Notes: generated by a model not told the origin, from the sequence alone. Shown: positions 14,687 to 36,082, counted from the first letter of the stretch. The stretch is 44,743 bases of DNA from Candidatus Woesearchaeota archaeon (GCA_018302135.1 JAGWAE010000006.1:1-44743), one strand, 5' to 3'. A program made the numbers and translations.

Positions 14687-15238
14687 ATGGCATCGGTTTT
14701 AAGAGGTACGATAGATTTTCTAAAAGATTTTGGGCTATTTGATGTAATATTACCTTTCTTGTTTATTTTCGCAATAATCTTTGCTATACTAGAAAAAACA
14801 ATGATTCTTGGTAAAGAAAAAGATTTGCCTAAGAAGAATTTAAATTCTATTGTTGCTTTGGTTATAGCTTTGATATTTGTTTCAGCTAATAAATTAGTTA
14901 ATATGTTAACTGATGCTTTGCCAAATATAGCTTTGATGATCGTAATATCTGTTTCTTTCTTAATGATGCTCGGAGTATTTTGGAAAACAGAAGAATTTGA
15001 TTTTAAAACAAATGAAAAGAATTGGTATAGATTATTTTCGGTTGTAGCATTTATTGCTTTAATTTTAATATTCTTGGGTGCTTATGAAGTTACACCTGGA
15101 ACTAGTTTATTATCTCAATGGATTGATTCGATTGGGTCTGGAAGACTTAATGATATTATATCTGGGGTTGTTATTTTGGGAGTTATAGTTGGATTGTTAA
15201 TTTATGTCACTAGGAGACCTTCGGGAGGTAACTCATAA
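14687..15238 (+). CDS. Membrane protein, paralog 1 of a tandem triplet (unknown family)
   Basis: 183 aa with about 5 TM helices. The N-terminal module DFGLFDVILPFLFIFAIIFAILEKTMILGKEKD is shared with the next two genes. Confidence 0.7.
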   Translation: MASVLRGTIDFLKDFGLFDVILPFLFIFAIIFAILEKTMILGKEKDLPKKNLNSIVALVIALIFVSANKLVNMLTDALPNIALMIVISVSFLMMLGVFWKTEEFDFKTNEKNWYRLFSVVAFIALILIFLGAYEVTPGTSLLSQWIDSIGSGRLNDIISGVVILGVIVGLLIYVTRRPSGGNS

Positions 15239-15750
15239 TGGTTGATTTTTATACAATATTTTATCAGTTAGAGGATAGTGGATTTTATACTTATTTTTTA
15301 CCGTTTATGTTAGTATTTGTAATTTTGTTTGCAATACTTGAGAAAACGTTTATATTTGGTAGAATTGGCAAGGAAGAAAATGCGCTACCAAAAACTAATA
15401 TCAATGTTGTTGTTGCTTTGATAATAAGTTTATTCATGATAACTAGAACTGACTTAGTATTAATAATGAATAATTATTTGTCTAAAATGTCTTTTTTTAT
15501 TGTCATAGCAGTTATGGTATTAATCGTTATTGCAATGTTTACGGGATCAGATAGTTCTGTTCCAATGAAATATGCGGCATGGATTGCTATTGTAGCAGGC
15601 ATATGGTCTTTAGCATCTGGAACTTTGGGAGACAATTTCCCTTATTGGGGTTATTTGGTTGATGGATCCTTAACATGGATATTAGGATTAGGATTATTCG
15701 TGTTAGTTGTAGTGGCTTTGATGAATTCAAGTAAACCTCCTAAACCTTAA
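15238..15750 (+). CDS. Membrane protein, paralog 2 of a tandem triplet
   Basis: 170 aa with the N-terminal module DSGFYTYFLPFMLVFVILFAILEKTFIFGRIGKE. Its start overlaps the previous stop by 1 nt (TAATG). Confidence 0.7.
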   Translation: MVDFYTIFYQLEDSGFYTYFLPFMLVFVILFAILEKTFIFGRIGKEENALPKTNINVVVALIISLFMITRTDLVLIMNNYLSKMSFFIVIAVMVLIVIAMFTGSDSSVPMKYAAWIAIVAGIWSLASGTLGDNFPYWGYLVDGSLTWILGLGLFVLVVVALMNSSKPPKP

Positions 15751-15762
15751 TTTATTTTTAAT

Positions 15763-16281
15763 ATGGCAACCTTTTGGGACATAGGAACAATAGAATATAT
15801 AACTCCTGTTCTAATCTTTGTTTTAGTATTTGTAATAATTTACGCAATAATGCAGAAGACTAAGTTGTTAGGTGGGTCAAGTAAAGTTGATTTTATGGTT
15901 GCATTGGTTTTATCTTTAGTTGCTTTAGTATCTGAAAATACTGTTAAACTTATTTCAGTTTTATCTGGTTGGTATGTTTTATTATTGGTTGCAATTATCT
16001 TAATAACCTTAGTTTTAGCAGTTGGTGCAAAAGGTGGTGATTCCTTGGTAGATGCAATTCCAAAAATGCCTACATTAATGAGTATTGCTTTCTATTTATC
16101 TTTGGTAATACTTGTTGTTAGTATCTCTCATGTTTTTGGTCCAGTGTTTCAACCGTATTCTGCTGATGCAGATCCTAGTTGGTGGGCATTGAGAACAATA
16201 TTTAATCCAAAAGTTGTAGGCACTGTTTTGATAATGCTAATAGCTTTGGTAGTAATTAGTAAATTAACAAAAGAATCTTAA
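15763..16281 (+). CDS. Membrane protein, paralog 3 of a tandem triplet
   Basis: 172 aa with the N-terminal module TIEYITPVLIFVLVFVIIYAIMQKTKLLGGSSK and the same TM layout. Confidence 0.7.
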   Translation: MATFWDIGTIEYITPVLIFVLVFVIIYAIMQKTKLLGGSSKVDFMVALVLSLVALVSENTVKLISVLSGWYVLLLVAIILITLVLAVGAKGGDSLVDAIPKMPTLMSIAFYLSLVILVVSISHVFGPVFQPYSADADPSWWALRTIFNPKVVGTVLIMLIALVVISKLTKES

Positions 16282-16899
16282 TTATTTTTTAAGTTTTTCA
16301 GTTATTTTTTCAAGATCTTTTACATTTCTAGTTAAAGGTTCTAGAATTTTTTCAAATACTTTTTCCATTGCTTTTACTTCAGTATTTAATTCTGAAATAT
16401 TATCATTATAATCACTTACTTTACTTAGAACCGCTTTTTGTAAATTATCAACTCTTGTTTGGATTCTAATAACTTCTTGTTTTACTCCTGACATATCAGT
16501 TTCTACTTTTTCTTTCCACAATCTTAAGTCACCAATATTTTTTATCATATCGTCCCATTTTTCAGCAACTACTGATTCTGCTATTTCTTCTACCATTTCG
16601 TAATTAGCTCTTCCTGGGGGCTCTTGTGAAAATATTGGCATTCTTGTTTGCATTTGCTGAACTTCTGGTTGAATTTGTTCTGTTTGAAATTCGGGTTCAG
16701 GTAATTTTTCGGATGGGGAAGGAACATCATTTATATCTATTTCTTGTTTTACTGCTGCTTGATCGAGTGAATTATAAATCTCTTGAGGGGAGTATTTTTC
16801 TCTTTCTAATCTATTGAATATTTGAGAATTATCCATTCCTTCTCTTCTTAAATCAAGAACTCTATCAGTTGGTGCAGATTTATTTCCTTTTCCTAACAT
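16282..16899 (-). CDS. Coiled-coil protein with small helical N-terminal domain and acidic/Pro-Gln linker
   Basis: 205 aa: a UBA/HTH-like N-terminus (DRVLDLRREGMDNSQIFNRLEREKYSPQEIYNSL), a low-complexity PE/Q linker, then about 110 aa of heptad-like sequence. It overlaps the upstream 127-aa gene by 20 nt. Confidence 0.6.
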   Translation of the reverse strand: MLGKGNKSAPTDRVLDLRREGMDNSQIFNRLEREKYSPQEIYNSLDQAAVKQEIDINDVPSPSEKLPEPEFQTEQIQPEVQQMQTRMPIFSQEPPGRANYEMVEEIAESVVAEKWDDMIKNIGDLRLWKEKVETDMSGVKQEVIRIQTRVDNLQKAVLSKVSDYNDNISELNTEVKAMEKVFEKILEPLTRNVKDLEKITEKLKK

Positions 16900-17263
16900 T
16901 TTTTGTCCTCTTTTTTTCTATTAATTCTAAAACTTGTTCTTCTGTTACGAAATTTAATGGATTCCACATATTAATATATTTTTCTAAAACTTTCATTTGT
17001 TCCTTTCTTGCAAAAAAGGACATTTCTTTTACTATATTTCTTGTTGTTTCTTTTATTAATTCTAAACTTTCTTTTATTTCTCTTAATTCTTCATTCATAG
17101 ATTTTATTTCGGTAGTTAGTATTTTGTAATGATCTATCATATTTTGATTTATTAAAAGCATTCTTTCTCTAGTTACAGTATACTTTCCTTCTAAAATTCT
17201 AATCCTTGTACCCAATTCGTTTAATGGGCTGTATATGTCTTGTGCTGGCGATATGGATGTCAT
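16880..17263 (-). CDS. Small coiled-coil protein
   Basis: 127 aa, predominantly heptad-like (RIRILEGKY..EIKSMNEELREIKESLELIKETTRNIVKEM) with a basic tail. It is the first gene of a two-gene minus-strand unit that diverges from the pilus ATPase gene. Confidence 0.6.
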   Translation of the reverse strand: MTSISPAQDIYSPLNELGTRIRILEGKYTVTRERMLLINQNMIDHYKILTTEIKSMNEELREIKESLELIKETTRNIVKEMSFFARKEQMKVLEKYINMWNPLNFVTEEQVLELIEKKRTKNVRKRK

Positions 17264-17344: not shown

Positions 17345-19636
17345 ATGGCAATTTCTCAAAAAAAGTTGAATCCTGGAGAGTATGAAATAATTCAAGAAGG
17401 GGAAGACCATATTATGAGAATAAATTTTTTTGGTTTGGACTATCCTCCTTCTTTAGAAGATAACAATATTTGTATGGCTAGTGTTATTAATGATTTAATT
17501 GAAAGCCCAAATGTTAGCAGAATAATTTTTTCTTCAGATAGAAATTATCAGTACAACAATGAACAGACTCAAATGTTAAGGGAATTTGGAAATATTTATG
17601 TTTATTTGACCAAACAGAGAAAAATTTTAAGTTTGAACTCTTTGGGTTTTGATCCTAATTATCCTACTTTAATATCAGACAAAATTGCAAATATACAATA
17701 TATAGTCACCAATTTATTAAAATCTGATCCTGTTGGTGCTTATGTTGATGTGAAACGACAGATAAGGGAACAAAAAATAAAATTGAATAAACCTATGTCT
17801 GTAAATGAGTTAAGACAAGAAAATTTGTATCTTAATGTTTTGGAAGAATTATTTGGTTTATTAGATAAAACAAAATTAATTGAATTATTAAAAAATGATT
17901 TAGATGGTCACCAAATTGGGAATAGAAGAATTTATTCTAATTTTTTCAGACCCGCTATAACTCCTAATTTTGTACATACGAGATTAATGGCTGAACCTCC
18001 AATGGATTCAGATGAAATTGATAGTTATATTGTTGATGAAAACATTAACATTATGATTTTTAATATACCTGAAGATATAAAAAGTAGATATCATGTTATT
18101 CCTCCAGAATTTAATTTAAGTGAAGATAAACTTGAATTATTAGACCTAGCAAGATCTGTTTTATCTGAGCATGAACCGGTTGCAGAAGAATTTACAAATC
18201 CAGAAAGAATGAGAGAAACTTTTTTTAATATAGGGAAAGATTTAATTAGTGAGCTAGCTGATCAGAAAAATATTAGAATTAGTTTTGAAGAAATTGAAAT
18301 TTTAGCAGGTATATTAGTTAGATATACTGTTGGTTTTGGTTTGCTGGAAGTTCTATTAAAAGATGAGAAAATACAAGATTTGGTTATTAATGGTCCAATT
18401 GGTGAATCTCCTATCTACATAGTTCATCAAGATTACGGTGAATGTAGCACAAATATTATACCTAGTAGAGAAGATGGTGAAAGTTGGGCAACAAAGTTTA
18501 GAATGATTTCTGGAAGACCTTTGGATGAGGCTAATCCTGTTTTAGATACAGAACTTTTAATTCCTGGTGCGAGAGCGAGAGTTGCAATAATAACAAATCC
18601 TTTGAATCCTTATGGGCTCGGTTATGCATTGAGAAGGCATAGGGATAATCCTTGGACATTGCCTTTATTTATGAATAATAAAATGATAAACTCTTTAGGA
18701 GCGGCTTTATTGAGTTTTATAATTGATGGATCTAGAACTTTATTAATTGCTGGTACGAGAAGTAGTGGTAAAACTTCCTTACTTGGTTCTTTGATGGTTG
18801 AAATAATGAGAAAATATAGAGTTATTACGGTTGAAGATACGTTAGAATTACCAGTTAGACAATTAAGAAGATTGGGATATAATATTCAGCCCATGAAAGT
18901 TAGATCCTCTTTATCTGAAGGTGGTGCCGAGCTTGCCGCAGAAGAAGGAATTAGGGCTAGCTTAAGAATGGGAGATAGTAGTTTAATTGTTGGAGAGGTT
19001 AGAAGTAGAGAAGCATTAGCATTATATGAAGCTATGAGAATTGGTGCATTGGCCAATGTGGTCGCTGGAACAATACATGGTGGAAGTCCTTATTCTGTTT
19101 TTGATAGAGTTGTAAATGATTTGGGTGTGCCAAGAACTAGTTTTAAAGCTACAGACATAATTGTAGTTGTTAATCCAATAAAAACTCCAGATGGTTTAAA
19201 AAAAGTTAGAAGGGTATTGAGTATTACAGAAGTTAGAAAAGAATGGGAAAATGATCCTTTAAGAGAAGGAGGTTTTGTCGATTTAATGCTTTATAATCCT
19301 GAAACTGATCAATTAGAACCTACTGATAATTTGATGAATGGTGATTCTGAAATAATAAAACAAATAGCCGCAAATGTTAAAGAATGGGCAGGAAATTGGG
19401 ATGCGGTTTGGGAAAATATATTATTGAGGAAAGAATTAAAAGAAGAACTTCTAACGATGTATAATGAAACTAAAAATAAAGATATTTTAGAAGCACAGTT
19501 TGTGGTTATGGCCAATGATGCTTTCCATAAAATATCTGATGAAGTTTTAACTAAATATGGTATGTTAGATAATAAAAAAATATCTTTTAGATGGAAGGAA
19601 TGGTTGAAAAAAGAAATGAAAAAGAGGAATATATAG
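17345..19636 (+). CDS. Type II/IV secretion-family ATPase (FlaI/PilB/VirB11-like) with long N-terminal extension
   Basis: Walker A GTRSSGKTS begins at residue 470. Also present are the Asp box ITVEDTLEL, Walker B SLIVGEVRSREA and the His box AGTIHG. A Shine-Dalgarno-like GGTGAT precedes the ATG. 763 aa. Confidence 0.85.
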   Translation: MAISQKKLNPGEYEIIQEGEDHIMRINFFGLDYPPSLEDNNICMASVINDLIESPNVSRIIFSSDRNYQYNNEQTQMLREFGNIYVYLTKQRKILSLNSLGFDPNYPTLISDKIANIQYIVTNLLKSDPVGAYVDVKRQIREQKIKLNKPMSVNELRQENLYLNVLEELFGLLDKTKLIELLKNDLDGHQIGNRRIYSNFFRPAITPNFVHTRLMAEPPMDSDEIDSYIVDENINIMIFNIPEDIKSRYHVIPPEFNLSEDKLELLDLARSVLSEHEPVAEEFTNPERMRETFFNIGKDLISELADQKNIRISFEEIEILAGILVRYTVGFGLLEVLLKDEKIQDLVINGPIGESPIYIVHQDYGECSTNIIPSREDGESWATKFRMISGRPLDEANPVLDTELLIPGARARVAIITNPLNPYGLGYALRRHRDNPWTLPLFMNNKMINSLGAALLSFIIDGSRTLLIAGTRSSGKTSLLGSLMVEIMRKYRVITVEDTLELPVRQLRRLGYNIQPMKVRSSLSEGGAELAAEEGIRASLRMGDSSLIVGEVRSREALALYEAMRIGALANVVAGTIHGGSPYSVFDRVVNDLGVPRTSFKATDIIVVVNPIKTPDGLKKVRRVLSITEVRKEWENDPLREGGFVDLMLYNPETDQLEPTDNLMNGDSEIIKQIAANVKEWAGNWDAVWENILLRKELKEELLTMYNETKNKDILEAQFVVMANDAFHKISDEVLTKYGMLDNKKISFRWKEWLKKEMKKRNI

Positions 19637-21787
19637 ATGCCTATTTCAAATAAAGAGATAAGTGAAATATTAGATAAATATAAAAAAAAGTTGGATAAGA
19701 ATTTGACTGCGAAGGATATGCAAGAATATAGGCCTAGCTCAAATTTTTCTAGAGAATACTCTAAGTTTAGAGATGAAGCATTAGGTAAGAATCTTTCACT
19801 TTATGAAAAACTTTGTAAATTCTCCGATAGTGTTGTTAAAATAAGCCCTTCTAAAAAAGATTTTGATAAAATCCAAGAAGCAATAAGTGTTGCCCATTTG
19901 AATATAACTCCAAATATGGCTGCAAGTTTTTCTTTGCTCGTCGTAACATTTTTATCTTTAATAGGATTGGTTGTAGGGTTAGTTTCTTATTTCTTATTTG
20001 GTAATCTTGGTGTTCTTGCTATAGGCTTATTATTAATACTTGTTTCTGTATTAATTTTAAATCCATTAACAAGATTGCCCGTGTCTATTTCAAATAGATG
20101 GAGAATGTCTGCATCTAATCAAATGGTTTTATGTATTTTATATATAGTAATTTATATGAGACATACATCTAATTTAGAAAATGCAATAAAGTTTAGTGCA
20201 GATCATATAGATAATCCTCTTTCTTTAGATTTAAGAAAAGTTTTTTGGGATGTTGAAACAGGAAAATATTCTACTGTAAAAGAATCTTTGGATAATTATT
20301 TGGTTAGATGGAGAAAAACTAATTTAGAATTTGTAAATTCTTTTCAATTGATTCAAAGTAGTTTATATGAACCAAGCGAAAACAGAAGAATAGAACTTCT
20401 TGATAAATCTTTAAATGTAATTTTAGATGGAACTTATGAAAATATGTTGCATTATGCACATAACTTGAAGAATCCAATAACTATGCTACATATGTTAGGA
20501 GTTATTTTACCTATTTTAGGATTGGTTATATTCCCTTTAATCGGTGCATTTATGAGTGGATCTATTAAATGGTATCATCTATTTATTTTGTATAATATTT
20601 TGTTGCCTTTGATAGTTTACAATGTTGGAATAAATATATTGAATAAAAGACCTGGTAGTTATGGTGAGATAAATATTCCACTTATGCCTAAGAAAGGAGT
20701 AGCTATTATGTCTATAATTGTTGTTTTAATATTTACTATAATTGGTTTTAGTCCTTTTATAATTCATGCTGCGGATTCAACTTTCGATTTTAGTTTTTGG
20801 CAGGCCGAGGATGGGACTGGTGGCGAGAAATTTTTAGATTTTTATTGTAATGAAGGCAAATGTGTTGGTCCATTTGGATTGGGAGCTTTATTGATAAGTT
20901 TACTAATTCCTTTAGGTTTAGCTTTAGGAATTGGTTGGTATTATGTGAGTAAAACTAGTTTAGCTATGAAAATAAGAAATGAAACTAAAAGATTAGAAAA
21001 AGAATTTTCAACTGCATTATTTCAATTGGGAACTAGAATTGGAGACGGAATACCTGCCGAACTAGCTTTTAAAGATGTTGCAAAAACAATGTCAGGAACT
21101 CCTTCTGGAAAGTTTTTTGAAAAAGTTCATATGAATCTAACTAAAAATGGTTTGAGTTTGAGAGATGCAATTTTTGATCCTGATTTGGGAGCTATTCTGG
21201 AATTTCCAAGTCCTTTAGTTCAAAGTTCTATGGAAGTTTTAATTGAAAGTTCAAGGAAAGGCCCTTTAGTTGTTTCTCAATCATTAACAAGCATTTCTAT
21301 TTATGTGAATAATGTTCATAGTGTAAATGAAAGATTAAAAGATTTATTATCTGAAATAATTTCAAGTATGCAAAGTCAAATAAGTTTTATGGCTCCAGTT
21401 ATATCTGGGATTGTTGTTGGTATTGCTAGCATGGTTGTTGGTGTAATTTCTAAATTAACTGTTATGCTTGAACAAGTCGGTAGCGATCAAACATTAGCTA
21501 CTGGTACAAATTTGGCCAGCCTTGCAAATCTATTTGATAAATCAAGTACTGTTCCTGGATATTTTTTCCAAGTTGTTGTTGGAATCTATGTTGTTCAGAT
21601 AATTTACATATTAAGTATACTAGCAAGTGCAATTGAATATGGGCCTGATAAATTAAATGAAAAATATAGTGCAGGAAAGAATGTTTTAAAAGGAACATTG
21701 ATATATTTAATTGTGTCATTGATAGTAATATTACTATTTAATAAAATTGCATCATCTGTTTTAGCTACAAGTATGGGTGCTGTTTGA
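19637..21787 (+). CDS. Pilus/archaellum-type assembly platform membrane protein (FlaJ/TadC/PilC, T2SSF-like)
   Basis: Starts 1 nt after the ATPase stop. Polytopic, 716 aa, with two cytoplasmic T2SSF-like helical segments (LSLDLRKVFWDVETGKYSTVKESL and EKEFSTALFQLGTRIGDGIPAELAFKDVA), each followed by TM clusters. Confidence 0.7.
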   Translation: MPISNKEISEILDKYKKKLDKNLTAKDMQEYRPSSNFSREYSKFRDEALGKNLSLYEKLCKFSDSVVKISPSKKDFDKIQEAISVAHLNITPNMAASFSLLVVTFLSLIGLVVGLVSYFLFGNLGVLAIGLLLILVSVLILNPLTRLPVSISNRWRMSASNQMVLCILYIVIYMRHTSNLENAIKFSADHIDNPLSLDLRKVFWDVETGKYSTVKESLDNYLVRWRKTNLEFVNSFQLIQSSLYEPSENRRIELLDKSLNVILDGTYENMLHYAHNLKNPITMLHMLGVILPILGLVIFPLIGAFMSGSIKWYHLFILYNILLPLIVYNVGINILNKRPGSYGEINIPLMPKKGVAIMSIIVVLIFTIIGFSPFIIHAADSTFDFSFWQAEDGTGGEKFLDFYCNEGKCVGPFGLGALLISLLIPLGLALGIGWYYVSKTSLAMKIRNETKRLEKEFSTALFQLGTRIGDGIPAELAFKDVAKTMSGTPSGKFFEKVHMNLTKNGLSLRDAIFDPDLGAILEFPSPLVQSSMEVLIESSRKGPLVVSQSLTSISIYVNNVHSVNERLKDLLSEIISSMQSQISFMAPVISGIVVGIASMVVGVISKLTVMLEQVGSDQTLATGTNLASLANLFDKSSTVPGYFFQVVVGIYVVQIIYILSILASAIEYGPDKLNEKYSAGKNVLKGTLIYLIVSLIVILLFNKIASSVLATSMGAV

Positions 21788-21792
21788 AAAAG

Positions 21793-21800
21793 TTTATAAA
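21793..21800 (+). promoter_or_regulatory. Internal TATA box in front of the pilin-gene train
   Basis: TTTATAAA ends 21 nt before the ATG at 21822, matching the leaderless spacing seen elsewhere. Confidence 0.45.
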
Positions 21801-21821
21801 AAATAAAAGAGTGAAAAGAAT

Positions 21822-21941
21822 ATGAACAAAAAAGGAGAGATTAAAGAATATTTAGAAACTATATTTATTATTCTTTTTATTATACTTGCTTTGTATTTAT
21901 TATATTCATTTGTTTCTGGGAGAGTTGTAAAAATTGTTTAA
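21822..21941 (+). CDS. Mini pilin-like protein (39 aa; class III leader plus one hydrophobic helix)
   Basis: Reads MNKKGEIKEYLETIFIILFIILALYLLYSFVSGRVVKIV. Not in the ORF track because it is under 60 aa. It has the same MNKKG leader as the downstream genes and overlaps the next gene by 8 nt. Confidence 0.5.
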   Translation: MNKKGEIKEYLETIFIILFIILALYLLYSFVSGRVVKIV

Positions 21942-22737
21942 TGGAAAAAAAGGTTTGGAATCTAGCGTTATGGTTGCAATTGTTATAATTTTGTCTGCCA
22001 TAATATTACTCATAGGAACTAAATCCATTGCTGATACTGGAGAGGATGCTGTAGATAGAGAATCTTGTAAAGCTAGCGTTTTGTTTAAGGAACGAAGTAA
22101 ACTTCTTGGAAAACCTTTAATTGATGATGTAAGTTGTGAAACTAATTTAATTGATATTAACTCTAAAGATGAAATTGAAATAAAGAAAACTATTGCTAAT
22201 GAAATGTATGATTGTTGGTATCAATTTGGTCAGGGTGAGAGAGACTTCTTGGATACATGGGATTTTGGTAAAGGGGATAATTATTGCTTTGTTTGTTCTA
22301 GGATTGATTTTAGTGAGGAAACTCAGAAAGAAATTAGTCAGGTAACTGGATTGTTTGATTATTTGAGTAATGAACCTTTGCCTTTACATAACCAAGAGAG
22401 CTTTTTTGTTAATATGTACGGAGAAGATGCTAATCAACTTGATTCTCAAAGTATTTTGGATGTTTATTCTACTGATAAACCTCTTTATATTGTCTTTTTT
22501 GCAGATAAGAGAACAGTTAATGATCTTGGTAGTTCTTGGGTAACCGCTGGAGCGAGTGGATTATGTGCAGCAGGAATTGTTCTTAGCCCTATAACTTTTG
22601 GTACTTCTGCTGCTGTTGGATGTTTGACTGCTGGAATTGTTACTGGAACGGTTTACACTACTACTCATAAAAATACATTTGTCAATGGTTTATATGTTGG
22701 ACAAGACAGTCAAATAATGGAGATATGTCAACAATGA
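21934..22737 (+). CDS. Class III signal peptide (pilin-like) protein, 267 aa, Cys-rich, with C-terminal Gly/Ala-rich hydrophobic segment
   Basis: The N-terminus reads (TTG)FNGKKGLESSVMVAIVIILSAIILLIG. A stop lies 2 codons upstream, which forces a TTG start. The body contains multiple Cys, and the C-terminus reads AGASGLCAAGIVLSPITFGTSAAVGCLTAGIVTG. Confidence 0.65.
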   Translation: MFNGKKGLESSVMVAIVIILSAIILLIGTKSIADTGEDAVDRESCKASVLFKERSKLLGKPLIDDVSCETNLIDINSKDEIEIKKTIANEMYDCWYQFGQGERDFLDTWDFGKGDNYCFVCSRIDFSEETQKEISQVTGLFDYLSNEPLPLHNQESFFVNMYGEDANQLDSQSILDVYSTDKPLYIVFFADKRTVNDLGSSWVTAGASGLCAAGIVLSPITFGTSAAVGCLTAGIVTGTVYTTTHKNTFVNGLYVGQDSQIMEICQQ

Positions 22738-22886
22738 AAAAAGGAGAATTGGCTTGGGATAAATTAGGAAAATGGATTTTACTTTTAATCTTCTTAATTT
22801 TAATTTTAATAGTTGTCTTTAAACAAAAAGATCAAATAATGAATGCTATTAAAAGTTTGGGAATTGCTTTGAGGTTTGGCGGATGA
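22734..22886 (+). CDS. Mini pilin-like protein (50 aa)
   Basis: Reads MKKGELAWDKLGKWILLLIFLILILIVVFKQKDQIMNAIKSLGIALRFGG. Not in the ORF track. It has ATGA overlaps with both neighbouring genes. Confidence 0.5.
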   Translation: MKKGELAWDKLGKWILLLIFLILILIVVFKQKDQIMNAIKSLGIALRFGG

Positions 22887-23485
22887 AAAAAGGAAATTTA
22901 ACTGGAACACAAATAATTGTTGCAACTATTACTATTATTATTGTCTTTGTTATTTCTGGATTTGGTTCTGAAGCTTTTGCTAAAATTGGGGATAGTTTGG
23001 GGTTCGGTGTAGATTTAACTCCAGAAGAATTAGTAGCTCAAGAACAAGCTAAATCTCAAGTTGAAGATAATTTAATCAGAGTTATTTATAGTTGTCAAGA
23101 TAAAATGAAAATTGGTTGTTTTTGTACTAATAATTCATTAAAATTGCCAAATGATTATGTTTTAAACTTTGAAGTAAAAGATGGAACAAAGTTTAGTTTA
23201 TTTAATAATAAAGGTGGAAAAGTAGAAGATTACAATTTAAACAATGTACAATTATGTATCCCAGATGAAAGTTGGAATTTGATTAATTTAAATGTACAAG
23301 CTAAAGATGCTGGCGCGAGTTTGCTTTTTGGAAGTACAAATTATTTAGTTTACAAGAGTTTAGATGGAAAAGATGTAAAAAAAGCAATTGATCCGGCTTA
23401 TTTTATTTTTAAACCTAGTTCAGGAACTATTTGTATATTAGATGAAAATAGTGCTAAAGTAAGAGAAAAAGATATTTGTAGTTAA
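22883..23485 (+). CDS. Class III signal peptide (pilin-like) protein, 200 aa
   Basis: The N-terminus MKKGNLTGTQIIVATITIIIVFVISG is followed by a soluble Cys-containing domain. Confidence 0.7.
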   Translation: MKKGNLTGTQIIVATITIIIVFVISGFGSEAFAKIGDSLGFGVDLTPEELVAQEQAKSQVEDNLIRVIYSCQDKMKIGCFCTNNSLKLPNDYVLNFEVKDGTKFSLFNNKGGKVEDYNLNNVQLCIPDESWNLINLNVQAKDAGASLLFGSTNYLVYKSLDGKDVKKAIDPAYFIFKPSSGTICILDENSAKVREKDICS

Positions 23486-23533
23486 CCAAAAAATTTAAAT
23501 AAACATTTTTATAGGAAAAATGGAGGTGATTGA

Positions 23534-23878
23534 ATGATAAACTCAAAAAAAGGTCAAAGTCTTTCTGTTAATACTATAATTATTATGATTTTAGCAATAT
23601 TTGTTTTAATAATCTTAGTTGTTGCTTTTACCGGGGGAACTGGCGATTTTATGAATAATATTGCTCAATTGTGGAGTGGTTCAGGAATAGACTCTCAGAA
23701 GGCTGCTGTAACTTGTAATGGAATGTGTAATACTTATAATACTGCGCAGTCTGCAAAGGTGAAAACTGATTTTTGTACCAAAGTCTTTAAAATAGATTAT
23801 GATGGTGATAAAAAAGTTGATGAAGAGTTAACCTGTCCTGAAATGTCATCAGTTTCTTGCCCAACAATACAATGTTAA
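23534..23878 (+). CDS. Pilin-like protein, 114 aa (candidate structural pilin), Cys-rich head
   Basis: Shine-Dalgarno GGAGGTGA lies upstream. The leader MINSKKG is followed by QSLSVNTIIIMILAIFVLIILVVAF. The C-terminal 55 aa contain 7 Cys. Confidence 0.75.
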   Translation: MINSKKGQSLSVNTIIIMILAIFVLIILVVAFTGGTGDFMNNIAQLWSGSGIDSQKAAVTCNGMCNTYNTAQSAKVKTDFCTKVFKIDYDGDKKVDEELTCPEMSSVSCPTIQC

Positions 23879-24081
23879 ACTCTTTTTTTTCTTATTTTAA
23901 AAATAAGAAAGGCCAAGGATTGTCTGTTGAAACCATAATTGTTTTAGTTCTTTTATTAATTGTTCTTGTTGTAGTGGTTTTAATATTTACAGGTCAATCT
24001 AAAATGATTTTCGATAATGTTAGAGAATTTTTTGGTTTGATTAATGAAACTCCTAAGAATTTAACTGGTACGATAAAATGA
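23872..24081 (+). CDS. Short pilin-like protein, 69 aa (candidate structural pilin)
   Basis: The leader ...FKNKKG is followed by QGLSVETIIVLVLLLIVLVVVVLIF, close to the mature N-terminus of the previous gene. The probable start is the ATG at 23872, which overlaps the previous stop. Confidence 0.7.
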   Translation: MLNSFFSYFKNKKGQGLSVETIIVLVLLLIVLVVVVLIFTGQSKMIFDNVREFFGLINETPKNLTGTIK

Positions 24082-24578
24082 ATAAGAAAGCAGTATTGGG
24101 AATGAATTTGAAGACTATAATAGGTCTGATTATGGGTGTCATAATGTTATTGTTTGTTTTTAATGTGGGAGATAGTATTATTGGTATATTGTTTCCAGAT
24201 ATTTCAGAATTAACAGAAAAATCTTTAGAAGGATTAGATAATTTAATACAAACAACAAGTTCTGGTCAAAAGGAAGATTATTTGTTTTTTATGTCAAATG
24301 GATTTCAGTTAGTTGCCTTCGATAAAGGTACAAATGAAAAATCTGGAGATTATGAAAGGCCTGCATCATGTTTTCAGAAATCTTGTTTAGTCGTTTGTAA
24401 AAAAAGTAGTAAACCTAATGCATGTGAAAACTCTGATTTAATAAAAACATATGATTTTGATAAAATAATTCCTACAAGTGTTGAAAGTGGAATTATAACT
24501 ATGGTTCAAAAAGAATATGTTAATCTCGAAGTTGAAGTGGGTAATAATTCTATTAAGATAACAGAGAAGGATAAATGA
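24078..24578 (+). CDS. Pilin-like / pilus-locus membrane-anchored protein, 166 aa
   Basis: The N-terminus is MNKKAVLGMNLKTIIGLIMGVIMLLFVF, i.e. an MNKK leader with a displaced Gly. The body is Cys-containing (CFQKSCLVVCKK..NAC). ATGA overlap with the previous gene. Confidence 0.6.
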   Translation: MNKKAVLGMNLKTIIGLIMGVIMLLFVFNVGDSIIGILFPDISELTEKSLEGLDNLIQTTSSGQKEDYLFFMSNGFQLVAFDKGTNEKSGDYERPASCFQKSCLVVCKKSSKPNACENSDLIKTYDFDKIIPTSVESGIITMVQKEYVNLEVEVGNNSIKITEKDK

Positions 24579-24606
24579 TTTAAATAGTAAATGATTAAAA
24601 TGAACA

Positions 24607-25017
24607 ATGGCTGCAGTAGAAGAGAGAACTTATTTTTGGACGGGTTATCTTGTAATAGCAATTGTTGTTTTTATACCTTTGTTAATGTTTATGAATAAAT
24701 CTGCAGATGCAGATTCTTTTAAAGAAAAAATTATTTCTAATGAATTAGCTTTAATATCTGATTTTGTTATGGGTAGCAATGGTGAAATATTAGTTGAATA
24801 TAATATTAATCAAGAAAAATCTTATAAAATTGGTTTTAATGAAAAATGTTTATTTGTTGTTTCTTTAACTGGTACTAGTTTGGAAAGTGGAAGTAAAACT
24901 TATTGTGCTGATAATTTATTATTGAATAAAAGATATCTTGATGCTGGAGAATATGTAAGAATAATATTAGATAAAAAAGAAGATAGGTTAGTTATTACAG
25001 GTGGTATAAGTGAATAA
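24607..25017 (+). CDS. Pilus-locus membrane-anchored protein without KKG leader, 136 aa
   Basis: It has an N-terminal TM helix (YLVIAIVVFIPLLMF) but no K-K-G motif. It is embedded in the pilin train. Confidence 0.55.
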   Translation: MAAVEERTYFWTGYLVIAIVVFIPLLMFMNKSADADSFKEKIISNELALISDFVMGSNGEILVEYNINQEKSYKIGFNEKCLFVVSLTGTSLESGSKTYCADNLLLNKRYLDAGEYVRIILDKKEDRLVITGGISE

Positions 25018-25489
25018 AAAAGGTCAAGAATTTGAGCAGGAATTGTTGAAAATGATACCTTACTCTTTTATAGTAATATTAGTTGCATTAACTTATGTCT
25101 TTGCATTTTCTAATATATTAAATGTTAATGTTCAAAGAGCAGAAATTGATGAACATGTTGCAGTTTATAGATTGTTCAATAGTAAAAGTTGTTTAGGTTA
25201 TAGTAATGGTGTAATAAATTTAGATAAATTTTATAATGAAAATCTTGAAAAATGTTTTGATCTAACATCTCAACAAAGAACAGGAGTTGAATTAAAATTA
25301 TACAATCTAAATGGAACCGAGGTTAGAACTGCAGAAATAAATAGTTTATTAGTTTCTCAGAAAGTTACGTGTAAATTAAAAAGTTCTGATGTTGATTGTT
25401 ATTCAACAAGAAAATATGTTTTGTTTGAAGAAGATAATGAGATGAAACAAGGAATGATAGATATTTTGGTGGTGACTTATGCTGAATAA
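25010..25489 (+). CDS. Class III signal peptide (pilin-like) protein, 159 aa
   Basis: GTG start. The leader (M)NKKG is followed by QEFEQELLKMIPYSFIVILVALTYVFAF. Overlaps the previous gene by 8 nt. Confidence 0.6.
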   Translation: MNKKGQEFEQELLKMIPYSFIVILVALTYVFAFSNILNVNVQRAEIDEHVAVYRLFNSKSCLGYSNGVINLDKFYNENLEKCFDLTSQQRTGVELKLYNLNGTEVRTAEINSLLVSQKVTCKLKSSDVDCYSTRKYVLFEEDNEMKQGMIDILVVTYAE

Positions 25490-25907
25490 AAAAGGAGACG
25501 AAATAATAGCTAGTTTATTTAGTATGATATTTATTGTTATAATCTTAGCTCTTGTTGTTATATTTTCTATCTTAGGTGGAAAAGATAGCGAGTTAGAAAT
25601 TGGAGAGTTTTCTTATGGCAATGAAAATATTTTTGTTATTGAATCTTATTTGGAAACTAATTCTGATATTGTAAACTTGTATTTGATTGATGAAGAAAAG
25701 AAAGATGAACTAGAATTGCAAACTAAAAATATTTTTGATAAGGTTTATGGTAAATGTTATGGTTTTGAGATTTCTAATTTAAAAATTAATGAATTAACTA
25801 ATAAGAAAACCTGTGTTGATTATCCTATAGATAACAAATTATGTTTGGATATATCTGAATATGATAAAAAGATGGAAGATAATGAGGTTGCAAAATGCTT
25901 CGAATGA
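25479..25907 (+). CDS. Class III signal peptide (pilin-like) protein, 142 aa
   Basis: The leader MLNKKG is followed by DEIIASLFSMIFIVIILALVVIF. Overlaps the previous gene by 11 nt. Confidence 0.65.
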   Translation: MLNKKGDEIIASLFSMIFIVIILALVVIFSILGGKDSELEIGEFSYGNENIFVIESYLETNSDIVNLYLIDEEKKDELELQTKNIFDKVYGKCYGFEISNLKINELTNKKTCVDYPIDNKLCLDISEYDKKMEDNEVAKCFE

Positions 25908-26650
25908 ATAAGAAAGGAATATTACCAGTTATAACTTTAGTATTTACTCTTTTGTGTTTAAGTGCTTTTTTATTTTTTAGCCCGGAAGCTATGGATAATC
26001 AGAAAGATGTAGTTGGTGCAACAACTATAGAATTAATGAATTTAGATTTTAAATCTAAAGCAGATGCAATTTATGATGAACAAATTATAAAACAAAAGTT
26101 TAGTGAGAATTTTGTTAAGCTTGCTGAAAATGGTGGATATTATGAACAAAGTAAAACTGATGATGGATATGTTTATTGGAAAAGAGATAAAACAAATTGT
26201 TTTCCGAATGTTGAATTATTAAAAACTAATCTAATTAAATATATTAATTCTAGTGAAAAAGCTAGTTATGATTTTGATTTAATTTTCGATAAAACTAAAA
26301 TTGTTATTAATTTGAAAAATAATAAAGAATACATTGTTGAAAAAGATAATTATAAAATCAATATGAAACCTAAAAATGGTTTTGCAATAAGCTATAATTA
26401 TAATATTGATTCTTTGATGAATAACGTTTGGAAGGTTGAAAGAATCGTTAATTTATGTGAAGATGATAGGTCTTGTTGGGTTGATAATGCAGATTTCGTG
26501 TGGAAAAATGAGGACAAATTATATAAAGTAGAGCTAACTTCTGATAAAATAGTAGATGCCTTTGGGGAAAAAGAGGTGATCCTGAAGGCAGCTATTGATT
26601 TCGAAGAGTTGAATCCTTTAGAAGGAGAGGTGTTTGAATGCTTGGTTTAA
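25904..26650 (+). CDS. Class III signal peptide (pilin-like) protein, about 248 aa
   Basis: The leader MNKKG is followed by ILPVITLVFTLLCLSAFLFF. The ATG at 25904 gives an ATGA overlap with the previous stop and is preferred over the track start at 25895. Confidence 0.65.
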   Translation: MNKKGILPVITLVFTLLCLSAFLFFSPEAMDNQKDVVGATTIELMNLDFKSKADAIYDEQIIKQKFSENFVKLAENGGYYEQSKTDDGYVYWKRDKTNCFPNVELLKTNLIKYINSSEKASYDFDLIFDKTKIVINLKNNKEYIVEKDNYKINMKPKNGFAISYNYNIDSLMNNVWKVERIVNLCEDDRSCWVDNADFVWKNEDKLYKVELTSDKIVDAFGEKEVILKAAIDFEELNPLEGEVFECLV

Positions 26651-27636
26651 GTTATGAAGATATAATTGAAAAAATTGTTAAAGAGACTGCTATGTCCCGA
26701 GCAGTTTTAGAAAAAAAAATTGAGGATAAAATAAAACAGTTATCTGATTTAATTAGTAGGGAAGGTGCAGCACAGATAATCGCTAATCAACTTGGCGTTA
26801 AATTAGTTGAAAGTTTTGGAAGTAAAAGTTTAAAATTGAAAGAAATACCTAAAGGAACTAGTTCTGTTAATTTTTTAGCAAGAGTTATTCAAATTTATGG
26901 TGTAAGAGAGTTTAACAAAGAAGGTAGAATTGGGAAGGTTGCTAATTTGTTAATTGGAGATGAAACTGGAAGTTTGAGAATGGTAATATGGGATGATAAA
27001 TTAATCAAAGAGCTTGAAAATGGAGCTATTAATGAAGGAGATGTGATAAAAGTTAGTAATGCATATTCAAGAGTTAATAATAATTTTAATGAGTTACATT
27101 TGGGTTCTAGAGCAGTAATAAATATTAATCCAGATGGAGAAAAAATTCCAGAAATTCAAGGCAGAGTTAGTGTTTTAGAAAAGTTTGAATCTGTAAAAAT
27201 CTCAGAATTGAAAGAAGGAATGCAAGTTGAATTAAATGGAACTGTAGTTCAATTGTTTGAACCAAGACATTATTTGGCTTGTCCACATTGCAATAAAAAA
27301 GTATTTCAACAAGGATTAGAATATAAATGCAATACTCATGATGTGGTTGAACCTAAAAAATCTCCAATTGTAAATATGTTTTTTGATGATGGTTCTGGAA
27401 ATGTTAGAGTTGTTTTATTTGCTAATCAAGCTATGCAGTTGTTGAATAAAACTTCTGAGGAAATAGTAAATACTAATAATGAAAAAATTGAATTATTTAA
27501 AAAGGATGTTTTAGGAAAACAAATGTTAATTAGTGGGAGAGTTATAAGAAATCAAATGATGGATAGGTTAGAAATAATATCTAGTAATGTAAAAGAAGCA
27601 AACCCTGTAGAGCTAATTCAAATGTATGAAAAATGA
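26638..27636 (+). CDS. Replication protein A (RPA/RFA-type ssDNA-binding protein; OB folds plus zinc ribbon)
   Basis: Helical N-terminus (AMSRAVLEKKIEDKIKQLSDLISREGAAQIIANQLGV), an OB fold (VNFLARVIQIYGVREF..GKVANLLIGDETGSLRMVIWDD) and a Zn motif (CPHCNKKV..YKCNTH) inside a second OB fold. Confidence 0.8.
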   Translation: MLGLSYEDIIEKIVKETAMSRAVLEKKIEDKIKQLSDLISREGAAQIIANQLGVKLVESFGSKSLKLKEIPKGTSSVNFLARVIQIYGVREFNKEGRIGKVANLLIGDETGSLRMVIWDDKLIKELENGAINEGDVIKVSNAYSRVNNNFNELHLGSRAVININPDGEKIPEIQGRVSVLEKFESVKISELKEGMQVELNGTVVQLFEPRHYLACPHCNKKVFQQGLEYKCNTHDVVEPKKSPIVNMFFDDGSGNVRVVLFANQAMQLLNKTSEEIVNTNNEKIELFKKDVLGKQMLISGRVIRNQMMDRLEIISSNVKEANPVELIQMYEK

Positions 27637-31057: not shown

Positions 31058-31339
31058 ATGGCAAGAGCTGTAGCAACATTAAAAATAATGCCTTCTTCTC
31101 CCGATGTTGATTTGAATAAGTTAGAAGCAAAGGCTAAAGAAATAATATTTAGATTTCTTGGTGAAAAATCTGAAACCAAAATAAATATTGAGCCTGTTGC
31201 TTTTGGATTAAAAGCATTAATTATATTTTTTGTTATGGAAGAAAGTTTAGGAAGTCCTGATCCAATAGCTGAAAAGGTTGCTAATTTAAAAGAAGTTAAT
31301 TCTGCTGAAATAACTGATGTAAGAAGAGCTATTGGTTAA
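31058..31339 (+). CDS. ef1b: Translation elongation factor aEF-1 beta
   Basis: MARAVATLKIMPSSPDVDL..IEPVAFGLKALIIFFVMEE..VNSAEITDVRRAIG is the typical 90-aa aEF-1beta pattern. The ATG at 31058 is preferred over the track start at 31031. Confidence 0.85.
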   Translation: MARAVATLKIMPSSPDVDLNKLEAKAKEIIFRFLGEKSETKINIEPVAFGLKALIIFFVMEESLGSPDPIAEKVANLKEVNSAEITDVRRAIG

Positions 31340-32202
31340 AAAATAAAGTTTCCTAATAAAATACTAATTATTGTCCCTATCAAAAATGCAGGAATAAAAG
31401 CGATTCCATCTTTTACTAAAACTTTTTTCTTGTGTTTTTGTATTACTTCTATTTGTTTTTTTGTAACACCTAAAGATTTTTTTGAATAAACTAATTTATT
31501 ATTTATTATAATATCTTCTGCTATCCAGTCTCCATCTACTAATTTTTTTGTGTCAATCAATTTATACATTGAAATATTCTCTATAGACTTAACAGATAAG
31601 TAAAGATATAAGAAAGTTAATGGAACTATTGCCAACGCAAAAAATGCAAGTTGCAATGAATAATTTTTTATTATTAAAGCTAAAATTATAAATAAGAAAG
31701 ATAATATTAAGATAATTAATCTTATACTTTTGATATTCTTTTCTTTTGTTAATTCTCTAAAATGTTTTGTAAATTTTTTAATATTTTTTAAAATTAAAGT
31801 AAGGCTAACTAAAATACCATAAACTCCACCAGCAATTAATATGTTCATAAATAATATTATTGGAAAGGGTAAACTTAAGTTTGGATTAAATACGTTAATT
31901 AATTGTGCAGGATATTCTGGGAGAATTGCACCTAAGCCCATTAATATTTTTGAATCTCCGCCACCCCATTGTTTTGAAAGATACATTAATTCTGAAATTG
32001 CGAAAAATATTCCTAAAACTGTTAAACTTTTCAATATTGGTGAAAATGAATTTTCTTGTATTGATTTTAAAGAATAAATAGACAATCCTAGTAATATTAA
32101 ACTGTAACTTAACCAGTCTGGGACTTCCTTTGTTTTTATATCGCAGATAGCTGCGAATGTTAACCAGACTAAAACTATTGCCAATATTATCCAATCAAAC
32201 AT
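31336..32202 (-). CDS. Prepilin/preflagellin peptidase (A24 family; PibD/FlaK/EppA-like)
   Basis: Polytopic, 288 aa. The first catalytic Asp context is AAICDIKTKEVPDW and the second is the GxGD-type WGGGDSKILMGLG. A soluble insert precedes the last TM helix. Confidence 0.8.
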   Translation of the reverse strand: MFDWIILAIVLVWLTFAAICDIKTKEVPDWLSYSLILLGLSIYSLKSIQENSFSPILKSLTVLGIFFAISELMYLSKQWGGGDSKILMGLGAILPEYPAQLINVFNPNLSLPFPIILFMNILIAGGVYGILVSLTLILKNIKKFTKHFRELTKEKNIKSIRLIILILSFLFIILALIIKNYSLQLAFFALAIVPLTFLYLYLSVKSIENISMYKLIDTKKLVDGDWIAEDIIINNKLVYSKKSLGVTKKQIEVIQKHKKKVLVKDGIAFIPAFLIGTIISILLGNFIF

Positions 32203-32703: not shown

Positions 32704-33846
32704 ATGTTAAAAAACAAAAAAGGGTCAATTGCTTCTTTGGCTATTTTTATAGCTGTTTTTATTGTTGTTTATTTATTATTAATGCCTGCTTGTGATAGGT
32801 GTATGTTGTTAAAAAATGAGAATTGCCAGGATTATTGTAATGAACCTCAAAAATTAGGAACTGTTCTTTACGATAAGCCTGGAGATATAGAAGTAAAGAA
32901 TAGTTTTACTCATGAGTTAGAGCCAGTTAGTATGTACATGAAAATCAATCCTGAAAATGAAGTTTTGGCTGATTCTCTTGTTGTTTCTAGGAGTTTATTT
33001 GGGACCGTAGATCAAGATATTAGTTTTGAAATAGACGACTTAGATAATTTAAGAAGTATTAATTTAGCTTTTAAATCTGTAAGTTCTAAAGGTAAACTTT
33101 TTATCGAATTGAATGGACATAATATTTTTGCTGAAGAAATTGAAGGAGTAGAATACAAACAGATACAGTTACCAATTACTTATTTGGAACCGGTTAATAA
33201 ATTGAAAATATATACAAGCAGTTCTGGACTTGCTTTCTGGGGAAAGAATGAATACGAGTTAAAATCTTTGGAATTGAAAAAAGAGTTTGAAATCGTTCAA
33301 TTTACTCAGTCTAGAGTTTTTTCAGTTAGTAATAAAGAATTAAATTATTTACAAAGTTCTAGTTTACAATATTCTATTGTTTGCAGTGAAGCGGAAAGAC
33401 AAACAATATTGAAAATATTTTTGAATGATCAACAAATAAATAGTGAGTTTATTATGTGTGAAAGTGTGGATAGAAACGTAGCTATTCAACCTAGTGAGTT
33501 AGTGGTTGGTGAAAATAAAATAGATTTTGTTATTGATAATGGTAATTTTATTTTTAGTCCGGTTCGAATTATTAATAATCTAAATCAAGATACTTATCCT
33601 TCATATTCATTTGATATTGGTGATGGAGAATTTGAAAGTGCCGAAAGATATTATTTATCTTTTAAAATGGCTGGAGATAACAAAAAAGCTAAAATTATGT
33701 TGAACGATCATGAAATTCAATTAGACACAAGTGATAATTTTTATGAAAGAGATATAACAACATATGTTAAAAAAACAAATAACTTTTTAGAAATAATTCC
33801 TGATAACTTATTTAAGATTAATGAATTAAAAATTTGGTATGAATAA
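32704..33846 (+). CDS. Class III signal peptide surface protein with three internal repeats, 380 aa
   Basis: The leader MLKNKKG is followed by SIASLAIFIAVFIVVYLLL. Three repeat modules share K-h-x-h-x-LN-[GD]-[HQ] (KLFIELNGHNIF, ILKIFLNDQQIN, KAKIMLNDHEIQ). Confidence 0.65.
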   Translation: MLKNKKGSIASLAIFIAVFIVVYLLLMPACDRCMLLKNENCQDYCNEPQKLGTVLYDKPGDIEVKNSFTHELEPVSMYMKINPENEVLADSLVVSRSLFGTVDQDISFEIDDLDNLRSINLAFKSVSSKGKLFIELNGHNIFAEEIEGVEYKQIQLPITYLEPVNKLKIYTSSSGLAFWGKNEYELKSLELKKEFEIVQFTQSRVFSVSNKELNYLQSSSLQYSIVCSEAERQTILKIFLNDQQINSEFIMCESVDRNVAIQPSELVVGENKIDFVIDNGNFIFSPVRIINNLNQDTYPSYSFDIGDGEFESAERYYLSFKMAGDNKKAKIMLNDHEIQLDTSDNFYERDITTYVKKTNNFLEIIPDNLFKINELKIWYE

Positions 33847-35138: not shown

Positions 35139-35177
35139 TTAGAAAGTTTTTTAAAATACTCTGAATATAAATTAATT

Positions 35178-36077: not shown

Positions 36078-36082
36078 TTGTC

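Follow-up and report, generated by a model that had tools for sequence, protein, structure and literature searches.

On the stretch of DNA from Candidatus Woesearchaeota archaeon analysed here (GCA_018302135.1 JAGWAE010000006.1:1-44743; the whole 44,743 nucleotides (nt) are referred to as the window), our analysis identifies a locus that very likely encodes a type IV filament-type assembly system. An assembly ATPase, a polytopic platform protein and a train of eleven small, mostly pilin-like genes fill positions 17345 to 26650, and a prepilin-type signal peptidase is encoded further downstream. The first-pass annotation had described a compact machine that could be special to one lineage. Neither part of that description survives: five more conserved genes upstream of the ATPase (14687-17263) belong to the neighbourhood, and the module recurs, as judged from sequence, in many genomes of Woesearchaeota/Nanoarchaeota and in a single one of Aenigmarchaeota. 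None of the five partner genes could be assigned to a known family. The module is an elaboration of a familiar machine; it is real and widespread, and its function here is one that we infer.

Results

The assembly ATPase

Window proteins were compared by tblastn with a set of 80 related loci, nearly all of them from metagenome-assembled genomes (MAGs) of Woesearchaeota/Nanoarchaeota; some neighbour counts cover 84 loci, and one locus, L083, is from Aenigmarchaeota. The first gene of the machine (17345..19636, + strand) encodes a secretion/assembly ATPase of 763 amino acids (aa), recognised by Pfam T2SSE, by alignment to the NCBIfam FlaI model, by a PDB profile search and by Foldseek. Four parts can be told apart: an N-terminal extension (residues 1 to ~227), a FlaI-like N-terminal domain (~228-455), the core (456-684) and a C-terminal helical extension (685-763). 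The Pfam T2SSE match (1.7e-15) is confined to residues 410-608. Among the NCBIfam models FlaI (NF058587) scored highest, aligning ATPase residues 228-702 with FlaI positions 34-499 (131.5 bits, cutoff 550, 3.8e-38); TadA-like and BasE models scored lower (BasE, NF053672: 64.6 bits, cutoff 1000, 7e-18), and ComGA matched at 1.7e-10. A PDB profile search with 30 ATPase homologues retrieved afGspE (1e-30), CpaF (8e-28) and FlaI (5e-18), over residues ~298-659 only. The same three relatives were found by Foldseek with an AlphaFold2 (AF2) model of predicted local distance difference test (pLDDT) 75 (afGspE, 2oap, 4e-16; FlaI 1.6e-14; CpaF 2.5e-11). The late P-loop of the earlier reading is in place, the Walker A motif GTRSSGKTS beginning at residue 470, and is followed by the Asp box (496), Walker B (544) and the His box (575); the key residues of all four motifs are invariant in 30 homologues. 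The protein is thus a predicted ATPase of the GspE/FlaI/CpaF type with its catalytic motifs intact.

The two extensions (1 to ~227 and 685-763) match nothing in Pfam, NCBIfam or PDB profiles, and the earlier statement that about 200 N-terminal residues lack an assignable domain holds. Both fold confidently in the AF2 model (pLDDT 80-93), the N-terminal one as an alpha/beta plus helical region (~10-200) and the C-terminal one as helices (685-762). The Foldseek run with the whole model was dominated by the ATPase core, and the leftover matches, to Dicer fragments (E>0.5), were not credible and were rejected. Identity within the family is 46-55% in the extensions versus 81% in the core, and the protein aligns end to end, extensions included, with a 750-aa protein of L083 at 47% identity. 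The family comprises 6289 proteins at E<=0.001. Lengths of 750-775 aa and a full-length identity of at least 61% hold for almost every one of the 120 top-scoring members. Hence, of the earlier claim that ATPase and platform are "oversized", the lengths (763 and 716 aa) stand and the unusual size does not, since such lengths are the norm in a large family. Extra N- or C-terminal, subsystem-specific domains are reported to be common in archaeal pilus ATPases, and these variable terminal domains have been proposed to bind accessory proteins (bioRxiv 10.64898/2026.04.22.720090).

Selection on the ATPase is, by sequence comparison, at housekeeping level, with conservation about equal to that of RadA; in L014, for example, the ATPase is 68% identical and RadA 66%. 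Some homologues (P0036, P0038, P0099 and P0110) have 1276-1277 aa and carry an intein (Pfam Intein_splicing plus LAGLIDADG_3). In P0036, the one compared, the intein interrupts the conserved Asp box after ...ITVED, at about residue 499 of the window ATPase. Inteins are usually found in highly conserved, essential proteins.

The platform protein

The start codon of the platform gene (19637..21787, + strand) directly abuts the stop codon of the ATPase. Its product of 716 aa has at least eight transmembrane (TM) segments and two GspF/PilC-type cytoplasmic helical domains, at ~178-305 and 471-616. The whole protein has no sequence match in Pfam, NCBIfam or PDB, and a PDB profile search with an alignment returned noise only. 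The family search proposed with the first-pass annotation accordingly succeeded for T2SSE (1.7e-15) and Peptidase_A24 (3.3e-15) and failed for T2SSF on the whole platform. When the first cytoplasmic domain was searched in isolation, T2SSF was met at E=0.14, over profile positions 12-125 of 125.

Structure and remote homology carry the assignment further. The AF2 model (pLDDT 76, predicted TM-score 0.70) repeats one pattern, in which a group of four short helices leads to a very long one that runs into the membrane (H180-305 and H474-616). With high probability Foldseek matched it only to cytoplasmic domains, those of EpsF, OutF and PilC (prob 0.99-1.0, TM 0.68-0.77, root-mean-square deviation 2.6-3.0 Å), and to a PilC model (prob 0.87). 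An exhaustive profile search collected 1301 platform representatives at E<=0.001, the best 150 being mostly 620-770 aa long. Ten distant relatives (E~1e-95 to 1e-107) were inspected, of which seven match T2SSF, two of them above the Pfam cutoff, and the matches fall at the position of the first or the second domain. Some of the distant relatives are Aenigmarchaeota or Nanopusillaceae proteins. One relative bears the NCBI name "type II secretion system F family protein", the other named ones shown are "hypothetical", and none of the close relatives listed has a Pfam domain. The two T2SSF-like cytoplasmic segments noted earlier are therefore borne out by the structural matches and by the Pfam matches of the relatives. 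A weak direct match, the predicted model and transitive homology together identify the platform as a divergent two-domain T2SSF protein (GspF/PilC/FlaJ/TadC-type), and the repeated secondary-structure pattern of the model, with the Pfam matches in relatives, points to an internal duplication.

A separate feature of the platform is found at residues ~350-415 (window positions 20684-20880), where an internal MPKKG followed by a TM helix resembles the pilin leaders described below. The helix is followed by a Cys-containing beta-hairpin loop that is poorly conserved (33% identity) and predicted to face outward. The segment could be a mere positive-inside TM segment or a pilin-like insertion.

The train of small genes and the peptidase

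The eleven open reading frames (ORFs) that follow the platform all lie on the + strand between 21822 and 26650, with gaps of -13 to +48 nt, and encode proteins of 39-267 aa; together with the 763-aa ATPase and the 716-aa protein starting at the next nucleotide, they reproduce the ORF map drawn earlier. Their N-termini were examined with a rule-based scan of our own (not FlaFind) for class III signals, with a short basic leader, G or A at -1 and then a hydrophobic helix of ~20 residues. Ten of the eleven pass, which agrees with the count given before of ten genes with a basic leader and a hydrophobic helix: nine have x(0-13)-K-K-G and a hydrophobic stretch no shorter than 17 residues, the ORF at 24078 has KKA/VLG, and the ORF at 24607 lacks such a leader.

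In detail, s01 (21822..21941, 39 aa) has the leader MNKKG, consists of the helix only and has homologues in 4 loci. The most widely conserved small gene is s02 (21934..22737, 267 aa; KKG leader, 8 Cys), which was found in 26 loci by tblastn and in 30 by profile; the second, C-terminal hydrophobic segment reported for it is indeed present and is rich in Gly/Ala. It is followed by s03 (22725..22886, 53 aa; leader MSTMKKG; 9 loci) and s04 (22883..23485, 200 aa; leader MKKG, 6 Cys). The candidate major subunit is s05 (23534..23878, 114 aa, 6 Cys), with the leader MINSKKG before QSLSV and homologues in 16 loci by tblastn and 31 by profile. Its neighbour s06 (23872..24081) encodes 69 aa from an ATG at 23872 or 74 aa from a TTG at 23857, has KKG before QGLSV and no globular domain, and did not match Flp1_like significantly (E=3.9). 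The remaining genes are s07 (24078..24578, 166 aa; leader MNKKA/VLG, 4 Cys), s08 (24607..25017, 136 aa), which has an N-terminal TM helix without the K-K-G leader, s09 (25010..25489, 159 aa; leader NKKG, GTG start), s10 (25479..25907, 142 aa; leader MLNKKG) and s11 (25895..26650, 251 aa; leader MLRMNKKG; 7 loci). Paralogy was detected between s05 and s06 (1.2e-10), between s09 and s10 (2e-7) and, weakly, between s08 and s10 (2e-4). Cys counts in the larger proteins are even, s11 with five being the exception, and three proteins (39, 53 and 69 aa) consist of little beyond the helix and resemble Flp/Epd-type subunits.

At about 29% G+C, AAA AAA GGN is easily written and Lys-rich N-termini are common. 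Such a composition, along with ORFs as small as 39-69 aa, could suggest that the small ORFs are not genes, or that the KKG motif is an accident of an AT-rich genome. We give this explanation next to no credence. Across 75 loci, 231 rule matches were counted on the + strand within 8 kb downstream of the platform, a density of 0.72/kb against 0.069/kb elsewhere (10-fold); in the window the ORFs overlap tightly and in the same direction, translated similarity reaches up to 26-31 loci, and only one other KKG protein (32704) occurs outside the train. In relatives the leader consensus at -4 to -1 is N-K-K-G. Taken in aggregate, leader pattern and context argue strongly that the small proteins are pilin-like.

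A TATA-like box, TTTATAAA, lies on the + strand at 21793..21800, 29 nt before s01. The internal TATA box reported at this place is thereby confirmed, and it is probably an internal promoter with a leaderless transcript. Since further boxes precede s08 (at -28) and s05 (at -40, together with the ribosome-binding site GGAGGTGA), the train probably forms three transcription units. Across the window, 8 of 47 genes have a TATA-like box at -28 to -32 (background 0.82/kb), and the position of TTTAWAWA 28-32 nt before these genes implies mostly leaderless transcripts. Examples of this register, the usual one of the genome, are found at 21793, 24579, 32231 (minus strand) and 8170; genes inside operons have GGAGG-like ribosome-binding sites instead.

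The processing enzyme that such leaders call for is encoded 4.7 kb downstream of the train (31336..32202, - strand), where the earlier reading had placed an A24 peptidase. The predicted prepilin/preflagellin-type signal peptidase of 288 aa matches Peptidase_A24 (3.3e-15), has both catalytic Asp motifs (D21 and GGGD83) and a TATA-like box of its own at -29; its best NCBIfam model is FlaK (1e-17, below the cutoff). A twelfth class III-like protein, beyond the range first noted, follows at 32704..33846 (+ strand; 380 aa, leader MLKNKKG, 6 Cys) and has no Pfam or NCBIfam family. Next to it, at 33867-37003, are three proteins without Pfam matches. In the first, of 423 aa, ...KILRG and a TM segment are found at the N-terminus; the second and third, of 299 and 306 aa, are paralogous to each other (2.9e-10) and have N-termini that resemble a lipobox (...ISGC and ...VAGC). 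This region may be a second surface-protein cluster beside the peptidase.

The diversity of the small proteins also bears on what is assembled. Ten or more distinct class III-like proteins are encoded, the majority with a Cys-rich extracellular domain of considerable size and one (s02) with a second membrane anchor. They could belong to a bindosome-like or pseudopilus system, in which ATPase and platform would set class III-signal proteins into a short surface-anchored array of Cys-rich binding proteins, or push proteins through the S-layer, and no long fibre would be built. The NCBIfam BasE model matches the ATPase, as given above, and class III-signal binding proteins have been argued to functionalise such archaeal systems commonly (bioRxiv 10.64898/2026.04.22.720090). 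We nevertheless consider an array of this kind unlikely, as the BasE score is far below its cutoff (64.6 vs 1000 bits) and below those of FlaI and TadA, none of the small proteins scanned has a substrate-binding-protein domain, and the three helix-only proteins look like fibre subunits of the Flp/Epd type.

Partner genes upstream of the ATPase

Five conserved genes precede the ATPase. Three of them encode a trio of paralogous membrane proteins, all on the + strand: A (14687..15238, 183 aa, ~5 TM segments), which is related to the next two (1.4e-20 and 1e-7), B (15238..15750, 170 aa), for which no PDB relative was found, and C (15763..16281, 172 aa). Exactly three copies occur in 49 of the 54 loci in which copy number was counted, in a fixed place upstream of the ATPase, and the trio profile matches three genes at the same position in L083 (7e-11 to 6e-20). 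Member-by-member searches gave no consistent Pfam family for the trio, and a PDB search, made with the 170-aa member only, gave membrane noise. Synteny suggests that the trio belongs to the machine.

The other two genes lie on the - strand and encode cytoplasmic coiled-coil proteins without TM segments. The first, up1 (16282..16899, 205 aa), is composed of a small N-terminal helical domain, a P/Q-rich linker and a conserved C-terminal coiled coil of ~110 aa; the second, up2 (16880..17263, 127 aa), has a TATA-like box at -38. By tblastn up1 was found in 59 and up2 in 63 of the 80 loci, up2 always paired with up1, and both have homologues in L083 (1.6e-34 and 2.4e-19, respectively). The 1585 relatives of up1 bear, among the names shown, only "hypothetical" or unrelated automatic labels; up1 itself gave generic coiled-coil matches only in Pfam and PDB, and member-by-member Pfam and PDB profile searches gave no family for up2. 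A lead to DUF6827 (E=0.0011) in the coiled-coil and trio searches was dropped, only 2 of 37 members having matched.

Linkage was counted in 59 loci with sufficient flank. In 47 of them the coiled-coil pair immediately precedes the ATPase, and pair and trio are linked in ~47-48. Also in the rearranged loci L059, L060 and L080, whose platform gene is found on the opposite side, the pair stays beside the ATPase. Two further neighbours are conserved, a 268-aa membrane protein without family (minus strand, region 13390-14645) and a PRC-barrel protein (14274-14645), which accompany the module in 32 and 34 of 84 loci, respectively; in L059 and L060 the PRC-barrel gene comes after the coiled-coil pair.

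Coiled-coil partners beside a FlaI-like ATPase recall FlaC/D/E or FlaX and raise the question of a diverged archaellum, a rotary swimming organelle built on the same three core families (FlaI/ArlI, FlaJ/ArlJ and FlaK/PibD). Many ATPase homologues are named FlaI in the JGI annotation ("archaeal flagellar protein FlaI"), FlaI is the best NCBIfam model of the ATPase (3.8e-38; alignment over 228-702; Foldseek 1.6e-14) and FlaK that of the peptidase, and fla genes have been listed in Woesearchaeota and Aenigmarchaeota (PMC11606122, PMC8407114). Against this, the FlaI score of 131 bits is well under its cutoff of 550, the ATPase profile is nearer to afGspE and CpaF than to FlaI, FlaC_arch meets up1 at E=2.7 only, and the Pfam/NCBIfam scans of the products scanned between 14274 and 33846 contain no archaellin or FlaX and, just as the first-pass annotation had stated, no signature of FlaH, FlaG/F or FlaC/D/E. 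The gene order, with ATPase, platform and subunits in succession, also differs from that of fla operons. Moreover, archaellum ATPases are reported to lack terminal extensions such as those seen here (bioRxiv 10.64898/2026.04.22.720090). An archaellum is thus highly improbable.

Distribution and gene order

The ATPase is present in all 80 loci and the platform nearby in 75. Among public sequences, those nearest to it come from MAGs under the labels Nanoarchaeum sp., Woesearchaeota, Nanoarchaeota or Nanoarchaeia. Downstream trains were sought in the 37 loci with at least 6 kb beyond the platform; 22 of them have 5-12 class III-like ORFs there, all on the + strand and none on the other. The gene order, whose absence from every relative had been named as a point that would count against the early reading, is therefore conserved.

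The Aenigmarchaeota locus repeats the order trio, coiled-coil pair (on the opposite strand), ATPase (750 aa), platform (767 aa) and small class III-like genes, with one unrelated 541-aa gene inserted. Two DPANN lineages or more thus share a conserved seven-gene core of trio, pair, ATPase and platform. The train of L083 (13097-22231) includes very large class III-like proteins of 729 aa (with a CARDB domain), 449, 607 and 846 aa, and its leaders end in (M)KG before D or in RG before A, not in NKKG. Several contigs of the set (L027, L033, L036, L037, L045, L057 and others) bear the database label "uncultured Methanosarcinales archaeon" or "Patescibacteria group bacterium", probably because the bins were mislabelled or are chimeric.

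Genomic setting

The window has a G+C content of ~29% and an archaeal gene content; tRNA and Rfam scans of it gave no match. It encodes Cdc6/Orc1, both PolD subunits, PAN, Hef, RPA, RadA, EF-1 beta, GINS51, eIF2 alpha and UDG, and with Cdc6, PolD, Hef, GINS, UDG and others encoded around it the locus is seated among replication/repair housekeeping genes. At 26638-28085 an RPA-like gene for single-stranded DNA binding overlaps s11 by 13 nt and is itself overlapped by 4 nt by a gene for a YdjM-family membrane protein; as a TATA-like box is missing from both, the two genes look as if they were transcribed together with s08-s11. RPA adjoins the ATPase/platform pair, in either orientation, in 30 of the 80 loci.

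This setting invites the idea of a pilus for uptake of DNA or other macromolecules, like the Com pilus of monoderm bacteria. By way of a short fibre, retractile or of the pseudopilus kind, extracellular DNA would reach the membrane of a cell unable to make its own nucleotides. The RPA gene and the last pilin-like gene overlap, RadA is encoded another 3 kb downstream, the housekeeping-level conservation would fit an essential uptake role, and ComGA matches the ATPase (1.7e-10). The succession of ATPase, platform and short, then minor pilin-like genes also resembles the order of comG operons. Still, the window consists of replication/repair housekeeping, so that adjacency to RPA and RadA may be incidental. 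ComEC, ComEA and DprA, and thus an uptake channel, matched none of the 38 window products taken into the Pfam scan, which left out seven more small ORFs of at least 90 aa, and the locus has no retraction ATPase. The Com pilus further differs in lineage, in leader motif and in having far fewer subunits than are encoded here. We therefore assign the uptake explanation a low probability.

Discussion

Comparison with known systems

Among the closest parallels to the assembly system described here are the archaeal Epd-type pilus of Methanococcus maripaludis ("system 1" of Sivabalasarma/Albers) and its bacterial descendant, the Tad/Flp pilus. Shared with them are a class III peptidase, a CpaF/TadA-like ATPase, for which CpaF (8e-28) is a better profile match than FlaI, and many pilin-like genes in a cluster of ~11 genes, some of them for very short subunits with little beyond the helix. 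System 1 has been reported in some DPANN archaea, systems 1 and 4A being mentioned, and has two platform genes (bioRxiv 10.64898/2026.04.22.720090), in contrast to the single 716-aa gene here. Other differences are the ~227 N-terminal and 79 C-terminal residues added to the ATPase, the linked coiled-coil pair and trio, and the FlaK-like peptidase. That CpaF scores above FlaI may be taken as a hint of system 1 membership. From the archaellum core the locus differs, as set out above, in scores below cutoff, in gene order and in the lack of FlaH, archaellins and FlaF/G among the products scanned.

A DPANN locus with an ATPase and a TadC-like gene, whose unannotatable signal-peptide proteins were predicted to be pilins, has been described (PMC6393860, Makarova, Wolf, Koonin 2019, Fig. 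2A). Its "dark matter" pilins around ATPase and TadC-like gene resemble the arrangement in the window; it serves there as an example of a dark-matter island, and the passages of PMC6393860 considered here mention no coiled-coil pair, membrane trio, ATPase extensions or N-K-K-G consensus. Our literature search brought up no account of the doubly extended ATPase family, of the Pfam-invisible platform family, of the linked pair, of the trio or of the N-K-K-G consensus. The seven-gene core thus looks undescribed, while the kind of DPANN pilus is itself known.

Points on the other side

Several observations weigh against an ordinary pilus machine of this composition. Foldseek E-values for the whole platform model are weak (0.1-1.6), and hhalign comparisons of its N-terminal with its C-terminal half (E=0.076) and of the two cytoplasmic domains with each other (E=0.4) are not significant. 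None of the small proteins matches the pilin, archaellin or class III models of Pfam and NCBIfam significantly, and in many leaders 4-10 polar residues precede the hydrophobic stretch, a looser arrangement than in textbook pilins. With its second hydrophobic segment s02, and without a leader s08, are unfit as simple fibre subunits. Fifteen of the 37 testable loci have no train (0-1 matches in 14, two in one), and no pilins were found in these within the 10-kb flanks. The involvement of trio and coiled-coil pair, finally, is read from synteny, and in genomes as compact as these the synteny of housekeeping genes is high in general.

Proposed mechanism

From the observed homologies, leaders and gene order we infer the following course of events for the type IV filament system. 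The A24 peptidase (31336-32202) would remove the N-K-K-G leader of about ten to twelve prepilin-like proteins, the hydrophobic N-terminal helix staying in the membrane. A hexamer of the ATPase would dock on the two GspF-type cytoplasmic domains of the platform, and ATP hydrolysis would raise processed subunits from the membrane into a helical fibre. The likeliest bulk subunits are the short helix-only proteins and the 114-aa s05, which has its own promoter-like box and a strong ribosome-binding site; the larger Cys-rich proteins would be minor or tip subunits that confer binding specificity. The extensions of the ATPase probably bind the coiled-coil pair, which would act as a cytoplasmic scaffold or regulator, and the membrane trio probably forms a subcomplex around the platform.

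The most likely role would be adhesion to, or contact with, a host cell or surface; it is taken as the default because it is the default for archaeal pili and fits a host-dependent lineage. For this role as opposed to uptake or surface display, the scales stand about level. The account as a whole, mechanism and adhesion or host-contact role included, appears probable to us. A bolder version would see in the seven-gene core a distinct, undescribed type IV filament subsystem, ancestral to at least Woesearchaeota/Nanoarchaeota and Aenigmarchaeota and under housekeeping-level selection, in which the coiled-coil proteins form a cytoplasmic ring on the extensions of the ATPase, the trio acts as a membrane complex like a stator and the apparatus serves the physical contact of these episymbiotic cells with hosts, or the uptake of what they cannot make. 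This version is tentative and, in our view, rather doubtful.

Significance

DPANN archaea make up a large share of archaeal diversity, and their means of attachment and of material exchange have still to be worked out. To our knowledge, all cultivated DPANN archaea live attached to host cells. Experiments on Patescibacteria, the bacterial counterpart, have demonstrated that episymbiosis is driven there by type IV pili (PMC9894109, PMC12206443). With a conservation close to that of RadA, a place among replication genes, an occurrence in more than one DPANN phylum and partner proteins of its own, the module would be a concrete and testable candidate for DPANN host contact. Definition of the family would help to annotate more than 1000 platform representatives, ~1,600 up1 relatives and the trio and up2 genes. 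The module is probably important for DPANN biology, and probably central to the contact that these host-dependent cells make with what surrounds them.

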